From Pseudovirgaria hyperparasitica (lineage: Eukaryota), in the NCBI GenBank assembly GCA_010093815.1, contig ML996567.1: a stretch of DNA of 41,230 nt, one strand, 5' to 3'. Of the stretch, positions 20,891 to 41,230 are shown piece after piece; positions within the stretch are counted from its first letter, which is position 1, and every line of letters begins with the position of its first letter. The position numbers were made by a program, and so were the translations under genes. The notes under the pieces are model-generated. The model was not told where the DNA came from, did no database searches, and saw only the letters and a program-made list of their open reading frames with translations.

Positions 20891-21514
20891 ATAGAAGACT
20901 ATATCTATAGCTCTATATATATATGTCTCTAGCTTAATTATATAGTATATTTATATACTTAAGAAGAATATTTCTCTACTTATTTTAATATACATGTACC
21001 CTCTATTACTAATATTTAACTATTTAGCTTTACTTTATATTTATAGACTTCTATAGGTATTAATTAATAGATATAGTTATTAAAGAATTAATTATAAGTA
21101 TTATATAGATCTATTCTATTATATAAGAGAACTAATAAGTAGTTATAAGATTAAAGAGTACTTATAGTATATAGAAGAGATAGATATAACTTTATTATAT
21201 CTATCTTATTAAAGAGTAAACCTCTTTCTTTAAAGGAATACACCTAAGAATAGCTTACTATAATTTTAGAGATTATATCTAGACCTTAAACTTATAGAGA
21301 GAGATTAGAACTATTAAACTAATATAGAGGAGATATATTAAGTAACTACTAAGATAATCTAGATCTACTAGACTAAAGCTATAAGTCTAGAAGCTAAAAA
21401 GTCTAGAATTACTAGAGGCTAGCCTCTTAGAAATCGCTACTAAGAGTATATATATACTAGCCTATATAATAATATAACTTAAAAGAACTTTAAAGAAATA
21501 GAATATAAAAGAGA

Positions 21515-21688
21515 TATTAGAACTTAGTCTTAGATATAACTATATCTATATATACCTTAGCTAACTTAGTTAGAAGGTAGTATAATAGATAGTAAATGGT
21601 TATATACTAAATAGATTAGCGTCCCTTTATATATATACTCTTAGATTTCTACTAAAAGAGTTTAGTAGTAATTTTATAAGAATAGAGT
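21515..21688 (+). repeat. LTR-A copy, 3'-truncated
   Basis: Reverse complement aligns by eye with 24750-24925; preceded by a purine-rich run. Confidence 0.75.
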
Positions 21689-21818
21689 AATTAGATAGTA
21701 GTATAGTTAGATAGAATAATAGAGTATATTCTATTGTAGAATAAATTACTACTAAACCCTTTTAGTAGAAATCTAAGAGTATATATATAAAGAGATACTA
21801 ATCTATTTAGTATATAAC
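21689..21818 (-). repeat. LTR-A fragment, inverted, interrupted by LTR-B
   Basis: Direct match to about 24713-24843 (gtagtatagttagatagaataatag...gagtatatatataaagaga). Confidence 0.8.
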
Positions 21819-22347
21819 TATAATAAATTACTAGTTAAAGACATAGAAGAATACGTAGACTCTAGTATAAGTAGTATAAGAAATAGTATAATACGTAGAA
21901 GGGGAGCCTACGATACAATAGATAGCCTTAGATAGTAATCTAAGGCTAAGATAGATACCTATAGGAAGAGCTAATTATAGGTACTTAGAATAGGTATTCT
22001 AAGTAGTCTACTAAGTAATTAGAAATAGAATATCGATATTCTAAGTAGTATACTAAATACTTAGAATAGGCATTCTAATTAGAGGACTTTAGTAGAACTA
22101 TATAGACTCTTTAAACCTAACCTCTAGAGATAGTTCTATAGTAATTAATTTAAATTTATACTAATACAATTACTACTTTACTCGTCTACTAGCTAGTTAC
22201 TATTTATACTCTATTAATACTTACTATAAACCTACTTATACTCCTCCAAGCCTTCTAAGTACCTTTATCTTTAGAAAAGCTAGAATATACTATATAATAG
22301 ACTACTTTAGAGATAAGCTGTATCCTTATTAGGGAAGGTTTATTATA
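21819..22347 (+). repeat. Putative 5' LTR (LTR-B) of a Ty3/gypsy element
   Basis: Bounded by inverted termini tataataaa...tttattata (RIP form of TG...CA). Internal short repeats near 21982-22077. Lies directly upstream of gag. Confidence 0.55.
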
Positions 22348-22499
22348 GTTTAATTACTTCTACTTAGACTCTAAAGTAAGTATTTATACTATCTATTTAA
22401 ATAAAAAATAGTAAACGATAGATAGTTCTTATCTTTATAAACCGTTCTATAAGCTCCGACTATAGAATAAGTTAGAAACCTTATTATAGAACTAGAGAA

Positions 22500-24711
22500 G
22501 TAAGTTACGGAGCTCTAGAGAGAAAATATTAAACTTAGAAAAGCTAAAGAGGGCTTTAAAAGAAAAATCCTAGAATCTTTTAAAGGTAAGCGAAGCGAAC
22601 TCTAAGGATTTCTAATATAGATTAGAATATATCTATAGACCTATTAAATTTAGAATCTAGAAGAATAAGTTATATTTACTACTAGACTACTAAAGGAAGA
22701 CGCACTCGCTTAGTTTAAACTCTACTTAAGAGACTTTATAGAAAATAATCCGTAGAATTAATAAGATAATACTACTAGAATCTTTAAACGTTTTAAAGAA
22801 TTCGAGAAATATATTAAAATAACCTTTAGAGATATAGATAAATAAAGGATAGCTAAGAGATAAATCTAGTAAATAGTCTAGATAAAATCTACGTCTAACT
22901 ACGTCTCTAAATTCTAATAAATCTCTAGTTAGTTAGGATAGAATAATAAACCCCTAATTCTCTAGTTCTATATAGAATTATATAACAATGTTAAGGATGA
23001 AATCTCTAGAGAGAGAGACCGTCCTACCAACCTCTAAGAATATATTAAGCTAGTAGTTTAGATTAATAACTAACTATATAAGAGACGCTATAAGAAAAGA
23101 GGAAAAAAGATTTTTTAATCTATACTTAAATAAGATACTTAGAAGGGTTACGTTAATAAAGTCCTAAACTATCTATATAAGAGATTCTATAATAGATCTA
23201 TACTAATAGAACTTAGTATCTTATAGATAAAACGCCTATCTAATAAAGAAAGGGAATAACTAAAGAAGAAAGGTAAGTATCTTTACTATAAAGAAAAGGG
23301 ATACTACGCCCACGAATGCCCGAAAAATAAAAATAAGAAAAATTAGATTAAGGACCTAGTATTAAGATAAGGAAACTTTACTATAGAAAAGAAAGAAGTA
23401 CCTTATATAGCTATATTATAGACTAGTTATACTAACGATCTCTACTTCATATATAAGTTAGAGAAAGATAGTATAGATTAGTATCTAAAGAAAAGAAACG
23501 TTTTAATAGCTAGTAAATAACCTCTATCGCTTTATAAAAAAATAGAACTATAGAAATACTTAGATATAATAAGAAGATCTAAACTAACTAAAGAAAGGAT
23601 ATCTAAAGAAGTAATAATTAAAGGAAGTACTACTAAGGAAGATAGTAAGGAAGAAACCCTTACTATAGAAGAACTATATAATAAGTTAATAATAGACTAA
23701 GACTCTATTACTTACTATATTATCTATTATTATAGAAAGTATATAAGTAAGAATAATAGAGATCTATCTAGAAGAGATATAGAAATCTAACTAGAAGACA
23801 ACCTACTTATTTCACCCTACTATAAGGAATATAGTAAGACTTTCTAGATTACTTATCTCTATAATAACTATTCTTACTACCTCTATAAGAAATGAACTTA
23901 GAAATAGTTTCTATAATAGTATTAAAATTAAGTAATTCTAAAAGTCTTTAAGGATAAAGATATATAATAGTATAAAATAATTACTAAGGAAGCTAATAAA
24001 AACTACTTTATATTAAAGTAGATAGAAAATAAAATTTATCTAGAGAACTAATATATCTAATACCCGGACGTTATATACTAAACTTATCTAATATCTAAGA
24101 CTATTATATAGTATAACCTTTAAGTAGACTTAGGTAAAATTAAGAAATAAGTTTAATCTATAATCTAACTTATATAGAAAATAGAACGGGAACTTAGTAA
24201 GCTATGAAAAAACTAGAAAGACTAGATATACTAAGAGAAACGGCCGAGCTTAAAAGAAAATCTCTTATATCTATTAGTAACTTAGATAATAAAATATAAA
24301 TATCTCTTAAAATTTAGCTCTATTAAAAATACTCTATTAAAGTACTAATTAATAGCGGAGTATAGTCTAATTTTATCTCTCTAACTATAGTAGATAAACT
24401 AAAAATACCCTATAATAGTAAAGAAGAACTATATAAACTATCTACATTCAAAGGACTCAATATAGAATATACTAATAGAATAGTATACTTAGAAATAGAA
24501 CCTCTAGATTTAGTCTTAATAGTAGAATACTAATAATTATAACTAGATATAGCGGAGCTAGAATAATATAACTTAATTCTAGAAATACCATAGCTCGAAG
24601 AAGTTAACTCTATAATTAACTAGAAAACTAAGGAAATTATACCCTAGAAAACGTTAAGACCCTTAGAAACTATTAAGGAAGAGATAGAGATTAATAATAT
24701 AAGAATAGGGT
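22500..24711 (+). pseudogene. Ty3/gypsy gag and aspartic protease relic, truncated before RT
   Basis: 'ESFKGKRSEL*GFL', 'LLKEDALA*F', zinc-knuckle relic 'YLYYKEKGYYAHECP' (about 23278-23322), protease relic 'VLINSGV*SNFIS' (about 24342-24380), 'LILEIP*LEEVNSIIN*K'. Confidence 0.85.
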
Positions 24712-24925
24712 TATTAGATCGTAGTATAGTTAGATAGAATAATAGGGTGTATTCTATTATAGAACGAATTACTACCGAACCCTTTTGGTAGAAATCCGAG
24801 AGTATATATATAAAGAGACGCCGATCTATCTAGCACGTAACTATTTACCGCCCTTTACGTTACCTTCTAACTCTATTAGCTAAGGTATATATAGATTAGG
24901 TTCTACCTAAGGCTAAGTCCTAATA
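24712..24925 (-). repeat. Complete LTR-A (about 214 bp), probable 3' LTR of a minus-strand element
   Basis: Termini tattag...ctaata (RIP form of TGTTAG...CTAACA). Adjacent 24926-24944 reads on the minus strand as a polypurine tract (gagggaagggataat). No TSD. Confidence 0.75.
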
Positions 24926-25867
24926 ATTATCCCTTCCCTCTAGGAAGCTACCCTTAGTAACCTAGATTATTATCTATCTCTATATCCCTATCCTAAGTCT
25001 TATAAGACCTTAGTCGTTCTCTACGCTTCGTCTTAGATATTTACTAATATTTACTAATCTAAGATTTATATAAGCGTTTTCCTAATAAACTAGATTTTAT
25101 CTATCCTAACTTCTTATATAGGTAAGATTACCTAATTAGACCTAGCATATCACGTAATATAATTAGATAAGCCCGGGTACTACCTATATTAAAATCTTTT
25201 CTTAGAAATATTCCTTTCTTTAAAAAACTTCTTAACTCTTTATAGAGTTTTTTAGATTATTAGGTATATTACCCGATCCTTATAGATATAGATTTATATA
25301 GATTTACTATAATTTAGTACGATTTATATAATTTACTAATTTTTATACCGTCCTTAGCTAGTAATAATATAATTTATAATAATCTATATAAATTAGTAAT
25401 AATTATAATATAGTTTCCTAAAATCTTAATACTAACAATTAGGAGCCGTTCTTTCGATATACGAAAGAACGTTACACGGGCCCAGGCGGTAACCATGCAC
25501 GACTCTTGGTAGAAAAACTAGGTAGTCGAAAGACACCGTAAGGCAGAGTCGAAAGGCAGCCCTTCCCACGCCTACATCCGAATAATTTTTACATATTAAG
25601 AAATCGCATGGTCGAAAGTTATGTCTGGCTAACTTATAATTATTATTTTCACGGAGGGGGTGGCGAAGAATATGCATGAAAACTACGCATTTTTCGCGAT
25701 TTTCACTTTGATTTTCCCAACCGTGCGCGATCGGTACCTAGGTATACTACACGCCGACCTACGCATACGTCTAAGGACCTTAGTAATCCTCATAGAATCG
25801 CGTACTCTAAGACACCTCTGGGATCGCCGATTCTAATCCATTCTACTACTCACGAACTTTATAAGCT

Positions 25868-27517
25868 ATGGCACCCCCCTTAGTACCGCTTCCTAATGTA
25901 GATAGTATACGTTAAGCATGGGATATTATATTTAAACTTTTCCCCATCGGCGGGAGCGATAGAGCTTAAGCCGCCTTCTTCCGACCGTTATCGTTTCCTA
26001 GCCCGCCACTATTCATCGCACGATTACTAGAGGCAGCGGCTCGTTAGCTAAACGAGCAACAGATTCCAGCCTATTTACACGTTACCAATACGAATAATAA
26101 CTCGCCTAATAACGATGAAGAAGACGATTTCGTTCCTAACACATGCCTACCGCCTCCGACATCTCCCCTACCCTCTTAATAATCTTATATAACTCCTAGC
26201 ACCACGGTAGCTCTTCGTATAGTACCAGCGTAACTAGAGATAATAGCCTACGATACCGATTAAGAGCGAGAAGAGGACGACGAAGAAGAGCGTTAGTCTA
26301 TATATACCCCTAGAAAGCGGCGCCGTAATGATGTATCTAACTAGAACGAATAGTTAACTACGAGAACTCCGCTAACGACCACGAGGGTAAGTAATAAAAT
26401 CCGGGCCAAGTTAAGAGCAAAGTATAAGGCTATGCTTGGGGAGGTCATGGAGCCATTTACCAACCCCGATAGCCCGTCGTCACGGAACGAACATGAAGCA
26501 TGGCTCTGTGCAAATGTAAGTCATCTTCGTTGGATAGGCACATTATAACACTTCCCTAAAGATATAAACATGGTTGGACAACTCCTTAATCGCGCATTAG
26601 AGATTGGTTCACCGTTAACGCTACTTCACTTTAGATTACTACTATAAGAATGGCGAGACGGTAAGACGGTAGACACAGCGCCTCACAGCCTTAATCCCCT
26701 ATAGGTTGTTATTAGGGATACGACGTCGACTAGGGAACGCTTAGTGCGTACATTCATAGACTAGGCCAGTACACTCTACTTTAAGATCGTTAAGCTAGTA
26801 CACACATCGCGTCTTATCGGGATTAGACGTCGCCTAGCACTCGCGGATATATATGAAGCTATAAACGCTACTAAGGAGGCACTAAAAATAGACCGCACAT
26901 TCACCCTTAGCACTAGGCAAGGCATCCGGTCAATTATAAAGGCTCGTCTATATGCCCGTATTAATCAACTCATGGGAGATCATGCGCCAAGTCTAGAATA
27001 ACCGTAGGACCTAGATATCGATATATATATATAGTAAGGGGAGGCCTTTAAGCGGATAAGACAGTGGAAATAAATGAACGATTGGTTGAGTCATGGCGCG
27101 CACTAGGCGTTAATCCGCGAGAGGTTTGGCGACGGGTTATTCGTTCTACTACCACCCGAAATTACGGACTCTTTCTTCTAGAAGATAAGGGTTAGTATAC
27201 TAGAGGACTTCCTAGGCCTCGTAGACCGATGTCATCCATGGCTTAGACGACTTTGTTATGGTGTTAAGCCATATTTACATTAGATTTTGAATGGAGACAT
27301 TGCGCCACCTAGGTAGTTCCCGATCGAGAGAATGACCTCGGAAAATATTACGAATATGGCGCTAGAGTAGTTTATAAATCTAATTAATCTATAAGATCAT
27401 AGCCTAGGGCTAAGTACGCCATAGGACATGCGCACTATAGATAATGATGAGGTAGATTAGAGAATGAAATACACTAATTCAGTAGCGACTACACTAATAG
27501 TAGAACACCTTGGCTGA
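25868..27517 (+). pseudogene. RIP-inactivated unknown protein (about 550 codons), first gene of the cassette
   Basis: One frame from ATG 25868 to TGA 27517 with internal TAA/TAG stops. Acidic/Pro-rich segment, NLS-like PRKRRR, C-terminal 'IRERFGDGLFVLLPPEITDSFF'. Confidence 0.65.
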
Positions 27518-27702
27518 AGATCGGGGCTAGTGGCAGCCATTGATTTCCTATGGCACGGCCGTCGAAAACTAAAGGACCTGAAAACTCCTTACTCTAGAGC
27601 CGTCTAGAATCGCCGTTTCTACACCTATCTATAGGAACATAATTATATGTATTATAGTCTACTCCCGACGCCAACCTACTAACACTATACGAATATATAT
27701 AG

Positions 27703-30700
27703 ATGTCCGTAGATTCACTACTAGTCGTCGACCTTGACACCGGAGCAATTATCTATCGAGATTGCAAGCGCGCCATCCTCCCATCCGCGCTAGACCGCCA
27801 CCTCCTTTAAGAATACCGAGGAATGAGACTAAAGTATCGTAAGATCATTAAAAGCCATATTTACTCGCTTAGTTATACCGCTACTATAATCGACGACCTT
27901 CGAATACCCGCTGCCCTGTCACGGCCTATAAGGTATATTCCGGTTAAGAGAGGGTTCTAATATATTGTCGAGAACTGCGGATTAGTTCTTGGCCTTTTAA
28001 AGAATCTTAAATTATATATTAAAAACGAACATATAGCGTTCTTTAATGGGCGTAGGGGGGCTCCACCTAGAGCGGACGATGAGACACGTGGATATAGAGA
28101 TAATATACCATACCAATGCCTATATAATACAGGCCGGTTAAACCGCCTTATCCCGATTATAACACGTACCACTATATACACTCGTACACCAATTAACACC
28201 ACACTCGATTAGCTCTAGTTAAATTAGTAGAACGTCCTCAAAGACAAAGGTTATATAGTATAAACCGGCGCTATCGACGAAGTTGATCCATGGCTAGAAC
28301 GTATAAAATTCATCAACTACTTCCAAGGCATGGATGTCCTCGCACTTACTAATATCCTAGAGATGCCCACCGAAGGGCCGCTAAAGATAGTATCGTCTAG
28401 TCTAAGAGTTCTATTCTACCAAGCCTATGAGACAGTAGGCGCTCACGATAGACTACTATGCCTAGAAGTAGCGCGTTCTATAATAGAGCCCGGGCTATAG
28501 CGACCTCTCGCACGTTATCGGAACTAGAAAATATTCCGCGATCACTCGAAGTATCTTCAGCGTCTTATTATCGGGGCTATCCAAGCGTACTAGAATCCCT
28601 ACTACCTCCCGGCTTTAGTCTTTAACACTAAGACTAAGGCGTGTATTACTCGGCTTCTGGACTACATCACTACGGAACAGCCATCCGGCGAGAGTAATAG
28701 TAGCTCCGACTCTAAACCCGAGACGAGCGTAACTAACGACTATCGTAGAGTAGAAGGTAATCTTAGCGAGTGGGATCTGGAAACACGTCGGGCAAAACTA
28801 TACGAGGTATTTGGTATCTAAACCCGCCCTCTTTCTCGCATCGCCTACCTTTATATATAGCTTATCATTACATTACTACGATAGACGCTATATGTGTACT
28901 TATTTAAGGCCGCACTAGTCCCATTATCCGGCCTACTATGTGTAGATCGAAACGGGGGCTTCCTTTCACCATAGAACTATACGTCTACTCTATTAGTACT
29001 TATTAAGTTCTCCCGCCTTATTGTCCTTAAGTGGGCCATCTAGGAAGTCTTCCATAAGTAAGCGGGTAGTACTATAGATGTCCTCGGATATCTCTTACCA
29101 TTTATTAACTAGTATCTCCTCCGCGGTAGTCGCGGTGCAGTTGGATAGTAGATATAACTTAGAGCTTACGGTCTTAAAATCGTGGGTAACATAGCTATAG
29201 ACGCAAAGATGTAGTGGGTTAATGATATACTTACGTATAATGCATATACAATTCCAATGAATGCATTTAGAGGGATGGTCTCTAGCTTAATAAATCGAAT
29301 AGCGCGAACATTATATACTAATATTCTTCTACTATCTTCTATAGAGGGAGCACTAGTAATCCCATGGTAGTTACTTACGGATAATACGGCTGATAACACA
29401 ATCGGGTATAGCTTCCTTTAGTTAGCGTGCCTCTAGGAGTAGTCCTCATGGTTTAGAAGGCGAGTTGAAAAGGACTAGAATATACAGTTAGCGTTCTTTA
29501 CCAGAGGAGAGTTAGATACATAAAAAGTATAAGACTAGCTCGAACAGATTCGAGTCTTTCTTAGTTAGCTACTTATCCTTATCTATATAACAGCTGGACA
29601 GTCTACACGCGGACTAGAAATCCTAAGTATATGGTACCGTAACACGCGACAGGGTGATATACGTAATATTATTCTTTATGGTAATAAGCTTTACATTATA
29701 ATAAAGTACTATAAAGGGTATACACGTAAAGGAGATATCCGCCTAATTCTTCGATATCTACCGCCGGTCGTATATAATATTCTAATATGGTATCTTTGGT
29801 TAGTCATCCCGTGGAAGGAACAACTCAAGAGATTCATGGATCCAACATAGACAGTCGTCCCTGTATATATATGGCTATCGCCGTACTAGACTAGCGAGCG
29901 CATAAGCCATGCGATAAGGGAATAGATGCATCTTAGTATAGGAGTAGTTAATATGGGTATCGCAGACTATCGTTAAGTCGCGATTATAATTATAAAGCGC
30001 AAGCTTCAGAAGTACGAGATTAACCATATGGACGAGGCCGATAAGGATAGTCTATAGGACGAGGACCAGAATCCGGGTACCCGAGATGATAGTCTAACCG
30101 CTATCCTTAATGAGTAAGCTAGTCATAGTATAAAGATTACCTAGATCGCGTATAGTCGTGATATAAGTAGCCCGTTTAGTACGGTAAAGACGGTAATAGA
30201 GAGGTACTTCTAGGTTAGTCGCGCATGGTAGCACGAGATCGGGGTGCCTGTGTTTAATAAGGTTACGCCTAGCTAGACGCGAATTTCATAAGCACGGGCT
30301 TACCGTTAGGCTGCACTCTAGGAGAAGAACCCGCATAAGGCTGTTAAGGTCGTACTCCGTGACGAAAACGCTAGAATGTGACTCTAATAAGAAAAGGTAT
30401 TTACCGGGCTAGTCGAAGGCCGTAGTCTAATACTGGTTATATAGCCGACTACCTTAGGTAAAAGTCTACCTTTCATATTAGCTATGTTAATAGTACTAGA
30501 CGGAGTAATACTAGTTATTATCCCGCTAAAGGCCCTTCGAGATGACCTTATCCGCCGTTATTATAATAGTGGTATTACTATAGAAGCATTCGACCCTACG
30601 CACCCCCCTTACGGGACGTCTATTATTATTATTACGCCCGAGTCTATAAAAGGCGAACCGTTTATGTAGTTTATAAACTATATAAATAGCCTAGGACTAC

Positions 30701-32343
30701 TCGACCGTGTGATTATCGATAAGTGCCACTATATCATTAATAACGACTAGTTCCGGCCGGCCTTTCGCGATATCTAAATAATGGTCGATCTAGAGGTGTA
30801 GATTATACTCCTAAGTATAACCCTACCACCCGATGATGAAGCAGGGCTATGGAAAGCCATACGTGTAAACGCTAGAGATGTGTTTATCCACCGCGAAGCC
30901 ATAACTCGGCCTAATATTATATATGCGCTTGGGAGCCTACCTAAGAAGGCTCGAGGTACCCGTAGTTAAGCGGAATACGTGCGACGTGTTAGATAGGGCA
31001 TTACCGGTAGATGTCTCGTCTTCACGCCTATGGTCACGCAAGCTATTAGCCTCGTAGGGGAGCTTGGTTACGATGCGTACTATCGAGAGAGTATAGCTAA
31101 GGAGCAGGTCCTTAACGGATTCATCGCCGAAGAAGAAGGTATTATAGTTACTATAAACGCTCTCGGCCTAGGTGTTGACCTAGCTACCATTCGCGTCGTG
31201 ATATACTTAGGCGCTCCTTCTTTATTTCTAGACTATATATAAGAAAGCGGCCGGGCCGGTCGCGACCACCTAATAAGAAGCCTCGCTATCTTCGTAAAGA
31301 TAGGAGAAGCCACTACTAAGGACGCGATGACACTTGCTTACATGAACTGGATAGGGTGTTATAGGGTGTTTCTAGATGAGTATCTCGACGGGTCGTTTAG
31401 TAGAAAGAGCTATAACGGGGTTAAAGAGAAGTGCGATGTGTACGACCCTACCCTATCGACATTCCTACTATATTTAGAGACCCTCTAGGAGGATCTAGAA
31501 TCGGCGATTCTAGACCTTTCTAGTAGCTCGCCCGTGGGTTCCTTAAACAGTTAACCCGACCTACTCTAGACCGATTAACCGTCGCGCTAGCCGCCTTATA
31601 CGTGGAATAAGATGAAACGAGCACGTATACATGGTAATAGTGTAGGCGAGGCAGGAAGACCAGCGAAAGGGCGGGTATTAGAACTTCCTAGTGCGCGTCC
31701 GGACGAAGATTGCGTGGGCGAGGACACTTATAATCAACGAATGTTCATATAATAACAGTCCATGAAACTGGTAGCACAAGAACGTCGTCTATAAAATAGA
31801 CAATATATAAGTCTCGTCTAGTCATTATCCGAGTAGAGACGATAGTAGGCTAGTTATTACGATGCATGTGGTACTAATAGTAGAGTCTATACTACGCACT
31901 ACTTAGATAATAGACGACTTATAGACATGGTTAAGCGTGTGCTGGCCGACTAAATACGAAAGAGTAATGTCATGCCTAAACACGTGTACTACTTCACCTG
32001 TCACTGGCCATAAATTCTATGTCCGCGGTAGGAGCCTAGACCGGAGGGATAACTAGGGTTCCGTCGGCTCCCGGGAAATATTAAGTATGTATAGAAATTC
32101 GGTTTATATCGAGCTCTTAGCGTAATAGTAGTCCACCTATCTAGACGATGGGCTACCCGGTTAGAAGGGTTTGGAATTTCGAAAACGGGCCAACCACCAA
32201 TAGTAATAAGAGAAGGTGCATGGGACTCTAGTGAATTAGCCCGTTAGCTATAGCGTAAGCGGCGAGAGGGGGCGTATGAAATTACGAATGCTATTCTAGA
32301 ATTTAATTAGGGCACTCTACTAGTTGTGGATGTTAGTCGATAG
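27703..32343 (+). pseudogene. RIP-inactivated DUF3505 zinc finger + tyrosine-recombinase-like + RecQ helicase fusion (telomere-linked-helicase-like), about 1546 codons
   Basis: Single frame. N-terminal 'IIYRDCKRAI...LDRHL' and 'GF*YIVENCG...KNEH'; 'PWLER'. Central 'TAGQSTRGLEILSIWYRN', 'ADYR*VA', 'E*ASHS...AYSR'. Helicase motifs 'PTTLGKS', 'IIPLKAL', 'ITPES', 'IIDKCH', 'FRPAF', 'ALGLGVD', '*ESGRAGRD'. Cys-rich RQC-like and C-terminal zinc segments. Confidence 0.88.
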
Positions 32344-32840
32344 GGTCGGTGGGATTTATAGTTATTATAGTTTAAGTCTAGAAGTATGCAAAGTCTATGG
32401 AGCATCTTAATGCCTATAGGTAACGTCCGTGAGTTAGTGCTCTTAATCCACGTCGCCCTATGTTAAATAGAATATGAAGAGGGAGACGTGAAAAGGATTC
32501 TCCTAGTAACGCAGTTGCGCATTTAGTATAAGAGTATAAGAACTAGGATCTATGACCCTAACTATAGGGCACCCTATAAACAGTGATTCCTAGAGTAGGG
32601 GCTGGAATTTCTAATAAAACCGATAGGTTAATTCACTTCACTTATAACACGTCATGACGTGACGTAAGGAGGTTGTGTAACAACACGTGACAAGACCCAA
32701 AATATATATTTATATATATTATTTCCGTCAACTCTCTCTATCTCTCCTACATCATTTTACTATTTTCTTACGTAATCTTATTTTTTCGACATATATATAT
32801 TCAACCCACCGATCGCCGTTTATAGACCCTTCTAGAGATT

Positions 32841-35800
32841 ATAGCTCCTTTTCTTCTAGTTAACATTCAAGCATAAGAGGAAGAAGATGATGATTTTCTC
32901 GATCCGTTTTTAGATGCAGCTACTAAAGAGATTCGCGAAACCAGAGCAGCGTTATAGAAGAAATATACTACCTTATCCGCTCTTATCGTAGGTAGTAGCT
33001 TAATAGGCTACGATTCTAAAGCCATAGAGCGATTTCTCGAGGTCGCTGCTATAGAGGAGGAAGTAGGCGAAGCAGGAAAAGGCGCACCTATCGAGCTAAA
33101 GCCGGGAAAAGAGGCTAGACAGGAGCGTAAAAAGGAACCTAGGCTGGAAAAGGACCGTCGCCTTGGTAAGATTGCCTCTAACCTCGGAATTAGCGTGGTT
33201 AAAGCAGCCATTTTATTCTAGGATCCTGAAGTTAACGCCTTGCTTAATGAATACTATATAGAGTTCTTTGACCCGCGGATTCTGGAAGGTTCGCATCCGT
33301 TTAGCCAGTTCACTTTAGCTATGGAACTTATTAAAGAAGACCGTGCCCATTACCTTATAGTAATAGTCGCTAGTCGTAGTGAATGGGAAGATTACTAGTA
33401 GCGCGCGTCTCTTATTCTCTAGATAGATCTTAAGCTATCTTCTAATCGTACGAATCCTCTTTCGCGAATGCGTATGTCGGAGAACGACAAATATCTTCTA
33501 TTTAACGATATACTTAAATACCGACGCCATGCCCGTAACTAAGGGCAAGAATACGAGGACAACTTTCGCATGAAAATTGTCTATGCTAACGCGAGGTAGA
33601 TGTCCACAATGCCTTAGAAAGTTCCTACTAACTGGGTTCCCCCTACTCATCCACTAATCACTCTATAGGCCCGTCTAGGATCGACGATTATAGGCCCTTC
33701 TAAGAAAAAAGCTAGAAGGCGTTTAGATTAACACTAAGCCGCCGATAGTAACTCCACCACTAACCGGAATAGGGAACTTGGTAAGAATACTAGCGATGCT
33801 ATAGATTAGGACCCGATAGAAGATATCTAAGCGATAGATCCGAACTCGCTCCTCGACGCACCCATGCTAGACGCACTAGCTATACCAGATGCCACTATAA
33901 AAGAAGGACCTATAGCTGCCCTAGTAAAACTAAAACGTTCCTTGAAGCCTATAAAGGCACCGAGGAAAAAATTGCCTAAGTACCATACTAAGGCGTGGAC
34001 TAATATATAGAAACGCGGTCTAAATCCATCGGGAGCATCGATAGATACCTATAATAATCTAGAATTTATAGTCGAAGACAAGGGCATTAATATGGGCGAT
34101 CGGCGTGTGTTCGCTAGGTTATATCTCGAGAGTCTCCCCTCCGAAGAAGAGCTCTAGGCCACGCTTACGGTAACTTATAAGGATTATAACGTCGTTAATC
34201 CGGATCATCTTAAACTAGGAACGTGTCCGTACCACTCTTACCTTACTATTAAGAATCTTGTAAAGGGCTTAAGCGGTACTTAAAAGATCTCCGAGATTGA
34301 AACTAACGAGGTTATTTAAGCGAATAATAATAAGACGGCAATTACCGCACGCATTGACACGGATCTTAGTAATATAGTACTAATTATAGATTAGTTAAAG
34401 TCGGGCAGCGAGAAGAGAAGCAAACTATAGGATTGGTTAAATGACTAGAGTAATAACGGCGCCGCCCAACTATAAGACTATGTTACAGCCGCGGTGGGTC
34501 TCCGAGTCACTAGTACCCGAAAACCTTAGATTCTTAACATGAATCCTAGCGTTACTCTATATTAGTGGTAACTTATAGGAGCTTGGTGGCTCCGAAAGAG
34601 TATGGATAGTTCGGTTTCACGGGGTATAGTATTAGTAGATGGTGTCGGACTAGGTAAAACATTTACACTTTTGGCGCACTAGCTACATGTAAGTTCCTTC
34701 CCCTAGTGGCCTCTGGAATCGCCGATTCTAGACGCGCCTACACATATCTAACTAAAATATAGTTAATTAACGAGCGCATCGCCAATCGCGAGAAGGGTAT
34801 CCTAGTGTCTCCTCTAAAGCCCGCCCTGCTATTAGTACCCGTAAATCTCCTTACCTAAACCGCTGAGTAGATTACGGACTTTTCCTCGCTCTTCCGTGTC
34901 ATTACTAGTCACGGCGATAGCAGGGTCGGGAAATCAGCCACTGGTACTACGCGTTTAGTAGGTATCTTAACATAGAAGAGTTAGTACTTTAGACCGGAGG
35001 AGATTAACGCCCGTACTATCATCTTAATGTCCTACGCAACGTTTAACGCCCGTTATGGCCTTACTAGGTGGAGGGAGGAAATACGAGGGTACGCGGAGTT
35101 CTAGAATATTAAATCTAGAAATTGGGACGCCGTCGCATCGGTAGAAATGAAATATATGGAGAAGTAGCATTTTCCACATGATGCCCCTTGGAACCTCGCT
35201 TAGTACTTCGACTATACGGTAGCTAACGAAGCACACGGCTTCCGGAATGTTAACTCTACGACCAACCGGTCCATCTACGAGCTTAACATTAAACACTACG
35301 TCCTTATGACTGGTACTCCCGTCTACAACTTCGCTAGTAATATGCAGGGTCTTCTTAAAGTCACATAATAGAGCGCATCCCTCGACGATTATTTCAACGG
35401 TATTTCCGGTATATAGCCGCCATTTAAGGCGAAGTCTAACCTATATAAGTTTCTATCGATGATAGTAAGACTGTATCCGGACGTTTCGCAGGAAAAACTA
35501 GATCGCGTCCTAGGTATATGTCTGACTTCTCCGGCCTTTAAGCACTGGTGCCTAGGTTCCGGCTATAATGATCCTAAGCCGCCATTAGAGCTAGTGCAAG
35601 GCCAGTGCTTAAGTATAATATACGGAGCATTTGTACTTCGCCGCACGAACGACTCACGGTATAGCGATGATAATGCTACTTTAATCCGCAACTACATTCC
35701 GCGGGCCGAAAGGGTATAGATTAAAGTGGCGTATCTACTAGAGGTGTAGGCTAAGTACGACACGATTAGCGAGGAGACCCGAAAGAAGCTTATTTAGCCG

Positions 35801-37327
35801 AATCCTTACCGACCCTCGGAATTAAGCCTGAACTCCCGCATATAGCGGAACTTAGTGCTAATGTCTACTATTATCTACATTAGGTATTCACACTTTTTCA
35901 TGCGTAGGGACATAGTAGCGTTAAGGAAAGATAATGAATAGAAGCCAAAATTCCCTCGTCCTAGCTCTAAGAACGAGAGCCCGCGTTAGATATACGCTTT
36001 CCTACTAAACATCGCCTAAGCTCGTGATCGAAGCCATCCTAAGGGTGGACTTACCAAGCTAGTTAACGAAGTAGAGAACGTGCTAGTAGTACTACTAGGT
36101 ATTCTATTTAACTAGTCCCCTCGGCTCGTAGCACTCGCTATATAAGCTGTAACGTAGTACTTTAAGTACCAGGAGAAGGGCATCGTATAGGTGTAATATC
36201 CTATTGAGCGTGAGTTAGTATGTTACATGTTACGGCTAATAGGCTTTAAGCACGTCGGACGCGTCTTTGCCGAAGACGACGCGCCAACCAGATAACAAAA
36301 GTATAGACTATTTAACTAGAAGATGGACTCTACCTTTAATAAGACCACGCCTAACGACATTACCGGTGATAAGGACGACCTGCTAGAGGCGCCTAGAATC
36401 GCCGATCCTAGTGCGTTCTTAGACGGCGACAATACCCATTAGGATAACATTAATAGAGTTCCCTCCCGGATCGATTAGTTCGTTAATACATGCGGAATTA
36501 CAGGGGTTGGTTTTAATTTATAGAAGGCGAATAGAAATGTTCATTTCTTTTCTTATCCAGCTAATCTCGCTCTCCTACGGCAGCTCTTGGGTCGTATATT
36601 TCGACTTAAATAGCTCTTACCGACCCTGCTTTCTAAGTACTATATGCTAAACACATGGGCATCTAAAATGTCCATGGCCATGACTCGCTGAGCATTGCCT
36701 AAGATGTTTACTACTCTGTCTAGTCTCGTGGACGGTACCCTCGATACTACTCTCGATGTTATCGTTCCGCCTGTTCTTAAGGGCTGGTATCCCATAATTA
36801 GAGATGTATACCACGATTTCGGTCTAATTATCCATGAAGACGATCCGGAGTTTAAGAAGCTATGTAAACCGGAATCCACGGCTGTTCCCGTGCTTGAAGT
36901 CATAAAACGCCTCCTAACATTTAACCGTAGTATCGTCATTAACTAAAGTGAGAGGCTAGGTGTTACCGATCGGACGGAGAGGGCTACTAGTACATTTAAC
37001 ATCATTAGTGACACTATGCGCCGCCCTAATAACCGCCTGGATGAGGACCCTACTAAGCGTAGTGCCTATGGTCATGGTAAGGACGAGGTAGATAGTAGAG
37101 ATAGGATCCATTCGCTGCGAGAAGCCAGCGAGAAAATAATATTATTAAGATCTATATTAGAGCCTATGATCCGCATAATATAGTTAATCGAAGACTATGA
37201 AGACCTCTTCCTAATAGAATACGCTGCCGAACGATTCGTTAATGAGGACTAGACCACTTATATAGTAGAGTAGTTTATAATAGATGAGACACTAATAAAC
37301 ATAGGTGGAGATAACGATGAGGCTTAA
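32841..37327 (+). pseudogene. RIP-inactivated SNF2-family helicase/ATPase with a long N-terminal extension
   Basis: Probable ATG>ATA start at 32841. Motifs 'GIVLVDGVGLGKT' (34623), intron 34689-34762, 'PALLLVPVNLL', 'MSYATF', 'VANEAHGFRN' (DEAH relic, 35225), 'LMTGTPVYN', 'FVLRRT', 'GVGFNL', 'QLLGRIFRL'. Frames are consistent across the intron. Confidence 0.85.
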
Positions 37328-38018
37328 CCGTCTTCTAGGAGGGATTAGAATCGGCGTTTCTAGTCGCGTCTATAGTTGGTACTTTTCTTTAACAGCGTGT
37401 ATTTATATTCCACTAGTTATTTTATTATGTTCGTGGCTACTAGTATCTTTCCTTTAATAGTCTATATGAGGATGGTCGTCCTCATGGCTTATTACATCTC
37501 CTTACTTTCATAATCGACGCCTAGTTAAATATTATTATAATTTCCAATACTGTCTCACACGCTCCGTTAAGCATTCCCATACTCGTTTTCCATACCTTTA
37601 AAACGTGGTTCCACTCCGTACTAGAGGCGTCTGGAAACGTCGAGCGCCGATAGCCTTTTACTCCTAGTAACATCTTAGTATACGTGAGTATAGGCTTCGA
37701 ACTAGTATTACGTTATTCCGACTTACGCGACGTAAGGGAGGGTTCATTTCATTCACTTAGTATTACTTTACTTTACTACTTATCTATATTGTATCCGGTT
37801 CATTAACCTCTATTTACTTTTATAATGTTACTACCTAAACGAGACTAGCTTGGTATTCGCACGAAGGTATATGAATATATACCACCTTATAATTTCCTCT
37901 CTCCTATATCAACTTACTTACTCTCGTATACGTTAACAAGTCTCACAATTCGTTCGTTTATCTCATTAGTAATCGCAATTCACAGACGCCTCTAAACAGA
38001 TTATATAGGTTTAACAAA

Positions 38019-41009
38019 ATGGCAGGCGATTAGAGCCTTCCGACTAAGCCAAGCAAAGGAAAAGGGAAGGCGGTATAATTAGCTCCGCCACCCGTGGAAG
38101 ATGCTAGACCTTCGGAACCGGCCAAAACTTCTGGATCCATACGCCATGCCCAATAGACACTTCAAGACCTAAATAATCTAGTAGGGAACGATCGTTTCTA
38201 TTAATCTTATAAAAAACCAATGCCGTCATGCATGAACAGCGTAAAGTTCGTGGTCGGTAACATTATGTAGATGCTAGAGAAGGACGTCTGTTTGGTAAAC
38301 GCTACGTAGAGGCAATTAGATACTAATCGTTTCGGTAGCATTAACGTAGTTATCCGCAAAGGAGCCGGTCCGGAACTCGTGGCCGCCCTCGCGGATTATA
38401 AGGTTTTGGAATCCGAGGAAATTCTAGTAACGGAGCCATATAATCTTAATGCAAAAATCATTATACACGTGGCTATACTAACATGCGTAAAGACGAAGTC
38501 GGATATGAAAAAACGTCATGACGTCCTAAGAGGTTTGTATAAAAGTATCGTCGAAACTGCGGTTAATTATTGGGACCCGGATGTTAGTAGCGTCGCTCGG
38601 ATTCTTTGTCCTGTCCTTAGAATATCGAAGTATAGATGGGCTATGGACGCCGGAGCCTATTCTACCCTTCTCGGTATACGAATGGCTTTCGAGGACTCTA
38701 ATAACGATGAAATACCATTCGATATCTTACTCGTCGTGCCATTAGCGGAGGATATGCTTAATATTACACCTGTTATCTAGTGGGTTTCCAATCATACGAA
38801 TTACTATCATCCACTAACATCCTTTAGTATTGTATTCCCGTCGATCGAAACGCGCGCCATTAAGTTTCCAGGTATGTTAAATCCCGGCTTTAGTAATCCT
38901 TGGGATCAGCGATTCCAATACCCGCGCATTCGTCATTATATACACTCTATAGTCTTTCCCTATAACCGTCTGGGATCGACGATTCTAGACCCCTCTTGAG
39001 ATATACATGTTCCCTATAACCGTCTGCGATCGACGATTCCAGGCCCTTCTTAAGATATATATGTTCTATACTAACCGTCTACCGTAGAACTACCTATCTA
39101 ATATATACCGATGACACCTCGTGCATATACGGCTCGCGCCGCTAGTATTAAGTTGGCTCTATCTTAGGAAGTTTACACTAACCGTACACGTTTCGTCGAG
39201 GATACAATTAGGGATAACGTTACACATGGTCGAGCCGTGGTAGCCCGTCCTCTAGTAACCGATAAACCATCCCCCGCGAAGAAGAAGAAGAAGGGTTCTA
39301 AGACTAAAAATGCCGCCGATCCTATTATAAGTGAGACCGGTAAAACGTCTAAGACCGCACCGCTACTTAAGAATAGTGTAGTAGTAAAAGAGCCGACTAT
39401 AGAAACGCTACACCCTACTACGGAACTATCTTCGGTAAAGGAACCCAAAGATAATACTAATAATTTAGGTTCTATACCTCCGCCTGCAGATGGCGAACTT
39501 CCTAATAATCCGGACTCCGAACCCGATACCTCTAACTTGCTACCACCGCGAACACCGTCAAAATCCAAAGCCCGGAAAGTAGTTAGAACGCCATCGAAAA
39601 GATTAAAGGCAAACTAAACCGACACCGTAAAGCCGACTAGCACTACTCTAGTTATAGCCGTAGCTGTAAAAAAGGCCAAAGCGCCAAAGCGTAAAAAAAA
39701 CGATGGTGACTTTATAATCTCCAACGACCTAAAGCTTCCTAGTAGGTGTCTACGACCTTAGGCGATAGCTTTCTTCATCGATCGACTAGTAATAGGCAAA
39801 CCTATTATCTACCGCTCGGTTGGACACTACTACGTCACGTAGTTCTGGTTAGCTGCAGCGGAGAGAATTTCGCGTCTCGAGAATCAAGGTAAGCTCCATG
39901 CCAGATTCACTTTTATCGCGAAGATTATATATATACTAGGTGGCGCCAGAGCGGGCGGCTATGGACCTAATACCTATATTGATCTACACTTCCACAGCTC
40001 CAAGGAATACTACCGTTTGATTCTACCCTATGAGCGGCTCGAGAGACTTACGTGGAGCCCTAAAATTCTCGTAGAGGGTCTTCGTCTTCGGCTCGCCCAG
40101 CCCGTATATAAAGAACCTAGATTTAAGACTCCTACTAATCATCGGGAGCGACAACTCGCCGTACTTCGCCAACTTAGGGAGTCGCTCGGTCGTCTAATTT
40201 TCCATGATTATTAGTCTAACATTGGCTTTGCGTATTAGCTCGCCATATAGTAAGTTCGGGATGAGCTGAAGTATGACGATCCCGACCTTAACCTACCTAA
40301 GGAAGTCGACGAGAGTGACGAAGAGGATTTATTACGTCGCATGAAGCCGCCAGCCGATACCGCCGAAAAGTCTTCTATAGCCGAAGTAACTATAAGGAAG
40401 AAGCGTATAGCGTCGTACAGCGATTTAAGTAAGGCCGTTAAGCGCGTTAAACTTAGTAACGAGATACTAGAGGAGGCACTAGAATTGGCGATTATAGACG
40501 CCTCTAAGGTTTTGGATGATGTGCCCGATAACACCACACGGATAAACTCCCTAGACCCCCTCGTAGACTCTAGTACTATTTCTAAGGAACGTGTGGAATC
40601 GCCGATTCCAGGACCTTCTACGGACCTTAACCCTCCTCCTGTTTTTCCTTTAATCACGCTAACCATGCCGACCATTACTACCACGTTATCGCACACATCT
40701 CCCGAGGGCACTAATGCTATCGCATTAGATGGTGAGGGTAATTCTAGGTCGCGGATCTTAGATCTATCTAAACAGCCAACGATCGATACATAGCCTAGCA
40801 TGCCTAACAGTGGCATTATCATTAACCAAGACCGGCCGCTTACTACCTAGGTATAGTATCTCGCTAATTATGGCCCTTTTAAGGACGAACACGCAGTTAA
40901 AGAACTTTACTATAATATAGCGTTCCCTGGATCTAATCTAGATTTCCCGCCGCCCTCGTTAGTAGATTCGACCGACCCTAATGATATCGACATAGACTTA
41001 AGTAGTTAA
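38019..41009 (+). pseudogene. RIP-inactivated macrodomain (Appr-1''-p / MacroD-like) protein with a long Lys/Pro-rich C-terminal extension, 4 exons
   Basis: 'VKFVVGNIM...LVNAT...GAGPELVAAL...VTEPYNLNAKIIIHV...ILCPVL' resembles the macro fold. Introns 38780-38827, 38872-39087 and 39889-39939 join in frame to the ORF pieces at 39237, 40017 and 40341. Confidence 0.72.
38956..39080 (+). repeat. Tandem duplication of a 54-bp unit containing the palindrome, inside an intron
   Basis: ttccctataaccgtctg(g/c)gatcgacgatt...gatata(c/t)atg occurs twice, followed by a partial third copy. Confidence 0.85.
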
Positions 41010-41230
41010 AGGGTTGGGTTTTTCTTGAGTGCGGACATGCGTATAAGATTCAAGTAGTTATTAGTAAATCATAATCTAGTACTAGGGTAGGCTCATGACT
41101 ATAACACTATAGCCGTAGACTAATAGCTAGACCGTAATACTAAAAGAGTGGGCATTCAGCCGTCTTATTAATTCTTAGTTCTTTATATTTTCGTACGCAT
41201 CTACGAACTTCATCACTTAATATAAATAAG

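Follow-up and report, generated by a model that had tools for sequence, protein, structure and literature searches.

The window analysed here is a stretch of 41,230 nucleotides from contig ML996567.1 of Pseudovirgaria hyperparasitica (assembly GCA_010093815.1). From about 25.8 kb onwards it holds a repeat element of four genes, and a near-symmetric palindrome of about 37-43 bp was found 14 times in this element. The protein encoded by gene 2 has a middle domain that is predicted to fold as a tyrosine recombinase (YR), followed by a helicase. We propose, with a probability of roughly 0.4, that the palindromes are a recognition site, similar in kind to lox or dif, for binding and possibly for strand exchange by the element's own recombinase-helicase.

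Copies of the palindrome and their placement

The core of the palindrome was described by the pattern CTGGAATCG-N-CGATTCCAG, which spans 19 bp with 18 specified bases. Seven matches with up to three mismatches were found in the window, against 0.03 expected. A count of at least seven was reached in none of 100 dinucleotide-preserving shuffles. A first-pass annotation of this DNA had listed 11 positions, and a core variant with one to four mismatches was present at all of them. A 43-column weight matrix was trained on 12 copies and used to scan the whole window. Eleven copies were strong, scoring 42.7-52.6 bits, or 33.0-47.5 bits with each copy left out of the matrix; these were ten of the listed copies and a new copy at 40479. 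The eleventh listed copy, at 38900, was weak (27.5 bits; 11.5 bits when left out of the matrix). Two further weak copies, both outside the training set, were found at 32807 (23.1 bits) and 37631 (19.9 bits), so that three copies were added to the list by the matrix (32807, 37631 and 40479). After these 14 copies, the best remaining matrix score anywhere in the window was 8.8 bits.

All 14 copies lie within 15.8 kb, versus none in the 25.4 kb to the left within the window. The motif had gone unnoticed in bases 1-25400, and the best matrix score there was indeed only 6.5 bits. By the same matrix, no copy was present in the 20 kb of ordinary gene-bearing DNA or in the 5.4 kb of other repeats that adjoin the element. 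Within the window, the palindrome is confined to the 25.8-41.2 kb block. A half copy (…TAGAATCGCG…), uncounted by the weight matrix, was seen at about 25780-25806, 28 nt before copy 25818. It is preceded by TTAGTAATCC, which is also the flank of the weak copy 38900. Rfam gave no match in the window. A metagenome scan with an exact 19-mer returned 20 loci with one match each; no second palindrome-like site was present and we read them as chance hits. No relatives of the four genes were found by tblastn at these 20 loci.

The idea that the repeat itself arose by chance, or as a by-product of RIP (repeat-induced point mutation) or of base composition, is refuted. Under RIP, sequences converge on TA-rich words such as CTAG, and this word is found in the unit. 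However, the shuffles never reached the observed count, the conserved centre is CpG-rich and could not have been created by RIP, and no copy was present in the heavily RIP-mutated block at 20-25.4 kb.

The 14 copies are listed below. The placement labels rest on provisional read-through gene models of a RIP-broken copy of the element.

25806..25848 (core 25818-25836): palindrome unit; intergenic, core end 31 nt before the putative gene 1 ATG (25868)
27592..27634 (core 27604-27622): palindrome unit; intergenic, core end 80 nt before the gene 2 ATG (27703)
31483..31525 (core 31495-31513): palindrome unit; in frame in gene 2, in a hypervariable linker just after the RecQ-type Cys motif
32795..32837 (core 32807-32825): weak palindrome unit with decayed left half (23.1 bits); in the spacer of genes 2 and 3
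33663..33705 (core 33675-33693): palindrome unit; in frame in the N-terminal linker of gene 3
34701..34743 (core 34713-34731): palindrome unit; fills the middle of the 74-nt gene 3 intron (34689-34762)
36381..36423 (core 36393-36411): palindrome unit; gene 3 coding sequence, SNF2 C-lobe; frame differs from that of the other coding copies
37333..37375 (core 37345-37363): palindrome unit; starts ~18 nt past the putative gene 3 stop
37619..37661 (core 37631-37649): weak palindrome unit with decayed right half (19.9 bits); intergenic, 388 nt upstream of the gene 4 ATG
38888..38930 (core 38900-38918): weak palindrome unit; first of three in the gene 4 intron
38958..39000 (core 38970-38988): palindrome unit; gene 4 intron, unit 1 of a 54-bp tandem repeat
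39012..39054 (core 39024-39042): palindrome unit; gene 4 intron, unit 2 of the 54-bp tandem repeat
40467..40509 (core 40479-40497): palindrome unit; in frame in the C-terminal region of gene 4; absent from the first list
40581..40623 (core 40593-40611): palindrome unit; in frame in the C-terminal region of gene 4

The gene models to which these labels refer are as follows.

25868..27290, + strand: gene 1 (provisional), RIP-broken; possible 55-nt intron at 26516-26570; end uncertain
27703..32601, + strand: gene 2, RIP-broken and intron-less; OrsD/DUF3505 zinc finger, then the tyrosine-recombinase-fold domain (~29434-30267), DEAD and Helicase_C; 3' end approximate
32841..37327, + strand: gene 3, RIP-broken SNF2-family ATPase; 74-nt intron at 34689-34762; start inferred (ATA, presumed former ATG)
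38019..41009, + strand: gene 4, Macro domain and long C-terminal region; 216-nt intron at 38872-39087

Five copies are intergenic, four lie in two introns and five are coding, and on these provisional models the labels of the first-pass annotation hold. Copy 34713 and copies 38900, 38970 and 39024 lie in introns that begin with GTAAGT/GTATGT and have frame-restoring lengths. At copies 31495, 33675, 36393 and 40593, the read-through frame is unchanged on either side. Non-coding DNA makes up 14.9% of the element but holds 9 of the 14 copies (P = 3e-5); with the gene 4 intron cluster counted once, 7 of 12 copies are non-coding (P = 6e-4). At least one copy is present in each intergenic spacer. 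The longest interval free of the palindrome (27623-31494) corresponds to the conserved coding core for the OrsD, recombinase and helicase domains of gene 2. The copies avoid constrained coding DNA, and those in coding sequence occupy variable regions. All five coding copies keep the frame, and four of them share one frame and read L-E-S-x-I-P; the chance of at least four of five falling in one frame is about 0.14. Homologues are not alignable in the linker that surrounds copy 31495. Copy 36393 lies within ~40 SNF2 residues that were judged by eye to be extra in comparison with homologue P0023.

In the gene 4 intron, a 54-bp tandem repeat at 38956-39063 has two units that are 89% alike, each consisting of the palindrome and its flanks. 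The branch site and 3' end of this intron (…ACTAACCGTCTACCGTAG) resemble a fourth, truncated unit. These observations suggest that the intron grew by repeat expansion.

A longer dyad had been suspected from several copies. This was borne out by the aligned units, in which positions -12 to +27, counted from the start of the core, carry information content above background. The approximate consensus is CTCTAG-RGGCCGT-CTGGAATCG-N-CGATTCCAG-ACSCCY-CTAGAG. The core has a 9-1-9 layout, and semi-conserved extensions lengthen the arms to about 21 bp. One way to read the dyad is as arms flanking a 7-bp centre, TCG-N-CGA, in which the central base alone is asymmetric.

The 19-bp core was well kept, and about half of the outer arm positions had decayed. 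Transversion-class departures were found at 6/180 core positions (3.3%) versus 44/240 arm positions (18.3%; Fisher P = 1e-6), a contrast that is inflated because the copies were ascertained through the core. The centre AATCG-N-CGATT is spared by RIP because it has neither CpA nor TpG. Many of the deviations had been described as RIP-type. In the 11 copies noted at that time, canonical RIP changes (CpA>TpA or TpG>TpA; CTGG>CTAG, CCAG>CTAG) accounted for 13 of 30 core mismatches, while 5 were other C>T or G>A changes and 12 were neither. "Many" is therefore a fitting word for the RIP-type deviations and "most" is not.

Arm likeness between copies was about 6/12, equally for left arms, for right arms and for left against right arms. 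No arm covariation was detected in the copies, with a within-copy match of 5.4/12 versus 6.1/12 between copies (permutation P = 0.97). These results suggest that the arms decayed independently from one symmetric ancestor. Copy orientation was not callable; flank scores favoured plus in 11 of 14 copies, with small margins and a training set that was all plus-oriented. Subfamilies defined by the central base (C, G or A) or by a shared A13>T change were considered and found unsupported by permutation (Mantel r = -0.10, P = 0.61), and copies with equal central bases were not closer to each other (P = 0.89). The only clearly related pair is that of the tandem copies 38970 and 39024. As judged from their sequences, all copies appear to descend from one sequence by copying.

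The placement upstream of genes raises the possibility of a cis-regulatory dyad, and an autoregulatory operator was among the options named in the first-pass annotation. The palindrome would then be a promoter-proximal operator, or an RNA hairpin in 5' leaders and introns, through which an element or host factor co-regulates the four genes. The distance from core end to putative start codon is 31 nt for gene 1, 80 nt for gene 2 and ~15 nt for gene 3; the gene 3 value refers to the weak copy 32807 and to a presumed RIP-mutated start. In addition, all genes are on one strand and no intergenic spacer is without a copy. However, nine of the 14 copies lie in introns or coding sequence, and for gene 4 the nearest upstream copy, at 388 nt, is degenerate. 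Six present-day copies were folded as DNA, and none formed a better hairpin than shuffled sequences did (z -1.84 to +0.39), which is weak evidence against this explanation because RIP has eroded the arms. The arms also show no covariation within copies (5.4/12 versus 6.1/12 between copies). We consider a regulatory dyad distinctly unlikely.

A recombinase-fold protein encoded by the element

In the first-pass annotation, gene 2 had been labelled as a DUF3505-YR gene, and the label proved apt. The gene combines OrsD/DUF3505, a tyrosine-recombinase-fold domain and a RecQ-type helicase. Eight homologue segments of the middle domain were aligned, and R62, E65, K97, R188, H232 and Y241 were invariant. 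The gene 2 copy in the window retains R, K, R, H and Y (5/5). An AlphaFold model of the middle domain was obtained with a pLDDT (predicted local distance difference test) of 70.5 and a pTM (predicted template modelling score) of 0.73. A structure alignment independent of Foldseek was performed against 48,161 representative chains, and its top 15 rows were all tyrosine recombinases/integrases or type IB topoisomerase. The best match was the archaeal Xer 4a8e (Z 8.7; root-mean-square deviation 3.8; 153 aligned residues), with XerA (Z 8.3), XerH (8.0), IntI (7.3), XerD (7.2) and Cre (6.7) as further matches. The top 11 rows of Foldseek were all Cre or its engineered variant Tre, with weak E-values of 7e-3 at best. 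We accept a tyrosine-recombinase fold for the family-specific middle domain, and catalytic activity of the domain is plausible.

The families PF12013, PF00270 and PF00271 were found in gene 2 of the window and likewise in its homologues. By this domain content, gene 2 is assigned to the telomere-linked-helicase (TLH) type. The available parts of earlier reports place TLH genes with helicase and DUF3505/OrsD domains at fungal subtelomeres (PMC5576322; 10.1101/2023.02.05.527183; 10.1101/2024.02.27.582403). A TTAGGG telomere array was absent from the window, which ends inside or just after the element. The TLH domain is said to have been defined in a 2009 paper. A literature search that left subscription journals largely outside its scope returned no paper on fungal telomere-linked helicases that also mentioned a tyrosine recombinase. 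Identity to the closest gene 2 homologues is about 31%, and the closest SNF2 match, leaving aside the gene model of the locus itself, likewise has 31%; the protein and metagenome collections searched gave nothing above about 31% protein identity.

Stop codons interrupt all four genes, and the copy of the element in the window is dead. The RIP signature is strong over bases 20-41.2 kb, with TpA/ApT of 1.3-1.7 and (CpA+TpG)/(ApC+GpT) of 0.09-0.67. The corresponding values over bases 1-18 kb are 0.63-1.01 and 1.05-1.41. Copy number was examined with contigs of two DNA runs (X1 and X2) from one sample, placed on 21231-41230. They gave 3547 (X1) and 8581 (X2) contig pieces with 80-100% likeness. 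Transitions made up 1502 of 1535 variant places in X1, and up to eight contigs were present at one variant place inside the element. The block is therefore a repeat with several RIP-diverged genomic copies. Summed contig depth is fairly even over 25.9-41.2 kb. The earlier claim that the palindrome marks the four genes as one unit agrees with this evenly covered, multi-copy block. The contig joints 41230>34713/34716 suggest that another palindrome begins ~3 nt past the window end.

Readings of the palindrome

In the proposed mechanism, two protomers would sit on the inverted arms, each of about 11-15 bp (...CGTCTGGAA / TTCCAGACG...), with the 7-bp centre TCG-N-CGA between them, as at lox, FRT or dif sites. 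Sites at gene boundaries, in introns and in linkers could allow copies of the element at different loci to pair or exchange. Alternatively, the sites might merely load the helicase-recombinase along the element. The available text of Kojima & Jurka (2011, PMC3212892) describes YR sites as inverted repeats of 11-13 bp around 6-8 bp. The geometry found here, inverted arms around a short centre, is that of a YR core site, and the YR-fold domain is encoded in the same element as the sites. The centre has been preserved far better than the arms. This pattern suits a dyad in contact with protein; a transposon with terminal inverted repeats would show the opposite. No contig joint that skips a palindrome was found in X1 or X2, and we count this for a recognition site. 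We also count for it the restriction of the 14 copies to the element within the window, their presence in all intergenic spacers with a further copy apparently just past the window end, and the helicase-associated repeats of Magnaporthe oryzae described below. A site for a dimeric element-encoded protein had been suggested by the first-pass annotation. An in-cis partner that works as a dimer or tetramer is now plausible, and in its size and symmetry the unit matches a recombinase core site; binding or recombination itself is still a proposal.

Several observations weigh against a recognition site for this protein. The Pfam scan gave no Phage_integrase in six of six homologues. A sequence profile of the middle segment gave four matches among solved structures, all with E of at least 0.55 and none a recombinase. 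Because the Pfam and profile searches were negative, the YR call rests on fold and motifs. The invariant R/K/R/H/Y set is what we take to be the YR signature, and the catalytic roles of its five residues are putative. The ascertainment of copies through the core exaggerates the better preservation of the centre, and RIP itself spares this CpG-rich segment with no CpA or TpG. No recombinant joints between palindromes were found among the contigs, although rare forms are lost from contigs and RIP has inactivated the element. Fourteen active near-symmetric sites inside the element's own genes would invite deletions and inversions. YR elements normally have their sites at the ends and not scattered through coding DNA. 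Finally, the palindrome could have another binder, such as the OrsD finger, the gene 1 product or a host factor.

The apparent descent of the copies from one sequence also fits a selfish insertion. A miniature palindrome of this kind, like the repetitive extragenic palindromic (REP) sequences of bacteria or Rickettsia palindromic elements (RPEs), or a transposon cut down to its inverted ends, would have multiplied in an ancestor of the element wherever it was tolerated and would have no role for the element. The common consensus of ~43 bp is longer than a typical binding site needs, which suggests descent by copying. The non-coding bias (9 of 14 copies in 14.9% of the element), the in-frame state of all five coding copies with four in the same frame, and the tandem duplication of one unit in the gene 4 intron are consistent with such tolerated insertions. 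The same is true of copy 36393, in the ~40 residues that are extra by eye relative to P0023, and of copy 31495 in its unalignable linker, in a comparison with homologues that are only about 31% identical.

However, no target-site duplication could be separated from the palindrome; its flanks (..CTAG / CTAG..) continue it, and no other direct repeat was present. The centre and not the termini is best conserved, in a contrast inflated by core ascertainment. Subfamily structure was lacking (Mantel r = -0.10, P = 0.61), and copies could not be oriented. The contigs of the two DNA runs showed no presence/absence polymorphism among the RIP-diverged genomic copies, and the matrix found no palindrome in the 20 kb of gene-bearing DNA or the 5.4 kb of other repeats beside the element. 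A unit of 43 bp is also shorter than any miniature inverted-repeat transposable element known to us. We regard a selfish insertion as rather unlikely, though it is the closest competitor of the recognition site. The "tiny mobile hairpin" of the first-pass annotation found no support, as neither a separable target-site duplication nor a presence/absence difference among the genomic copies was found, and the centre instead of the ends is best conserved.

A recognition site for the recombinase-helicase can be extended to a wider proposal, which we consider speculative and unlikely. Fungal TLH repeat elements in general might be tyrosine-recombinase elements, with the "TLH domain" as a working recombinase and the ~43-bp dyad as its lox-like site. 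Protelomerases resolve hairpin telomeres. Copies at chromosome ends might exchange or re-seed each other, or might resolve at the palindrome as protelomerases do. Many fungi, major plant pathogens among them, carry TLH repeats at their chromosome ends. A YR-fold middle domain together with at least 14 dyads of the size of a recombinase site makes it testable how such repeats spread and are kept homogeneous. If TLH elements are truly YR elements, this would offer a mechanism for widespread subtelomeric repeats. Even if it were purely a selfish insertion, the palindrome would add a rare example, from a eukaryotic nucleus, of an in-frame palindromic repeat that is translated.

Known systems and neighbouring features

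As far as the available part of Rehmeyer et al. (2006, PMC1635262) describes them, the TLH regions of Magnaporthe oryzae carry helicase-associated repeats (HARs) that are absent elsewhere in that genome. One of them, HAR-D, is interspersed and not tandem; within its conserved 50-bp core, near the TLH start, lies an imperfect palindrome of 23 bp (PMC1635262). By these descriptions, the HARs and especially HAR-D appear to be the nearest precedent. Both are short repeats specific to a TLH-bearing repeat region. In contrast, the HARs as described there lie in non-coding TLH flanks, mostly in tandem arrays, whereas one palindrome is spread here over ~15 kb and four genes, in introns and in-frame linkers. 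Some copies here are translated, unlike the HARs, and the recombinase fold offers a partner.

The likeness to lox, FRT and dif lies in inverted arms with a short centre, a total of about 30-40 bp, and a YR-fold protein from the same element. Unlike in those sites, the centre here is symmetric but for one base, and there are at least 14 sites in the element instead of one or two at the ends.

Rickettsia palindromic elements and bacterial REP sequences are likewise short palindromes. They multiply, and may lie in frame within protein-coding genes without disrupting them. They are dispersed genome-wide over unrelated genes, whereas the known copies here are all in one element family of a fungal nuclear genome. 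The attC sites of integrons are imperfect palindromes at gene-cassette boundaries and are recognised by a tyrosine recombinase, and IntI is among the fold matches of the middle domain (Z 7.3). Unlike the palindrome described here, attC sites are variable in sequence, act as folded single strands and do not lie inside genes. Introner-like elements of Dothideomycetes are repeated, structure-prone sequences in introns. The likeness to these is that four of 14 copies lie in two of three definable introns of a fungus of that class. However, the unit has no splice signals of its own, the GTAAGT/GTATGT starts and branch sites being outside it, and ten of 14 copies are non-intronic.

Gene 1 matched no family, and the stop-free open reading frame at 40254-40790 had no match. 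A 157-residue NCBI gene model of Pseudovirgaria hyperparasitica corresponds to a spliced reading of 36323-37249, and its exon 1 is 100% identical to the window. The model joins stop-free pieces of the RIP-broken SNF2 gene. Its exon 1 ends inside palindrome 36393, with a donor GTGCGT at the right edge of the palindrome. This gene model is probably an annotation artefact. The SNF2 ATPase gene (32841-37327) and the Macro-domain gene (38019-41009) lie side by side in the element. SNF2 and Macro domains are fused in the poly-ADP-ribose-dependent remodeller ALC1/CHD1L.

To the left of the element, summed contig depth over 24566-25433 was 158,117 in X1, versus about 1,400 over the element. There is a sharp boundary at 25433 (a loose end), where other copies continue differently. 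This segment is a very abundant AT-rich repeat and not part of the element. Two further runs, X3 and X4, covered almost none of the DNA analysed; two of their contigs touch 24793-24887 with about 82% likeness. The contig joints 41091>21515 and 24922>28432 indicate truncation of other genomic copies of the element, or their interruption by the AT-rich repeat, at these points.

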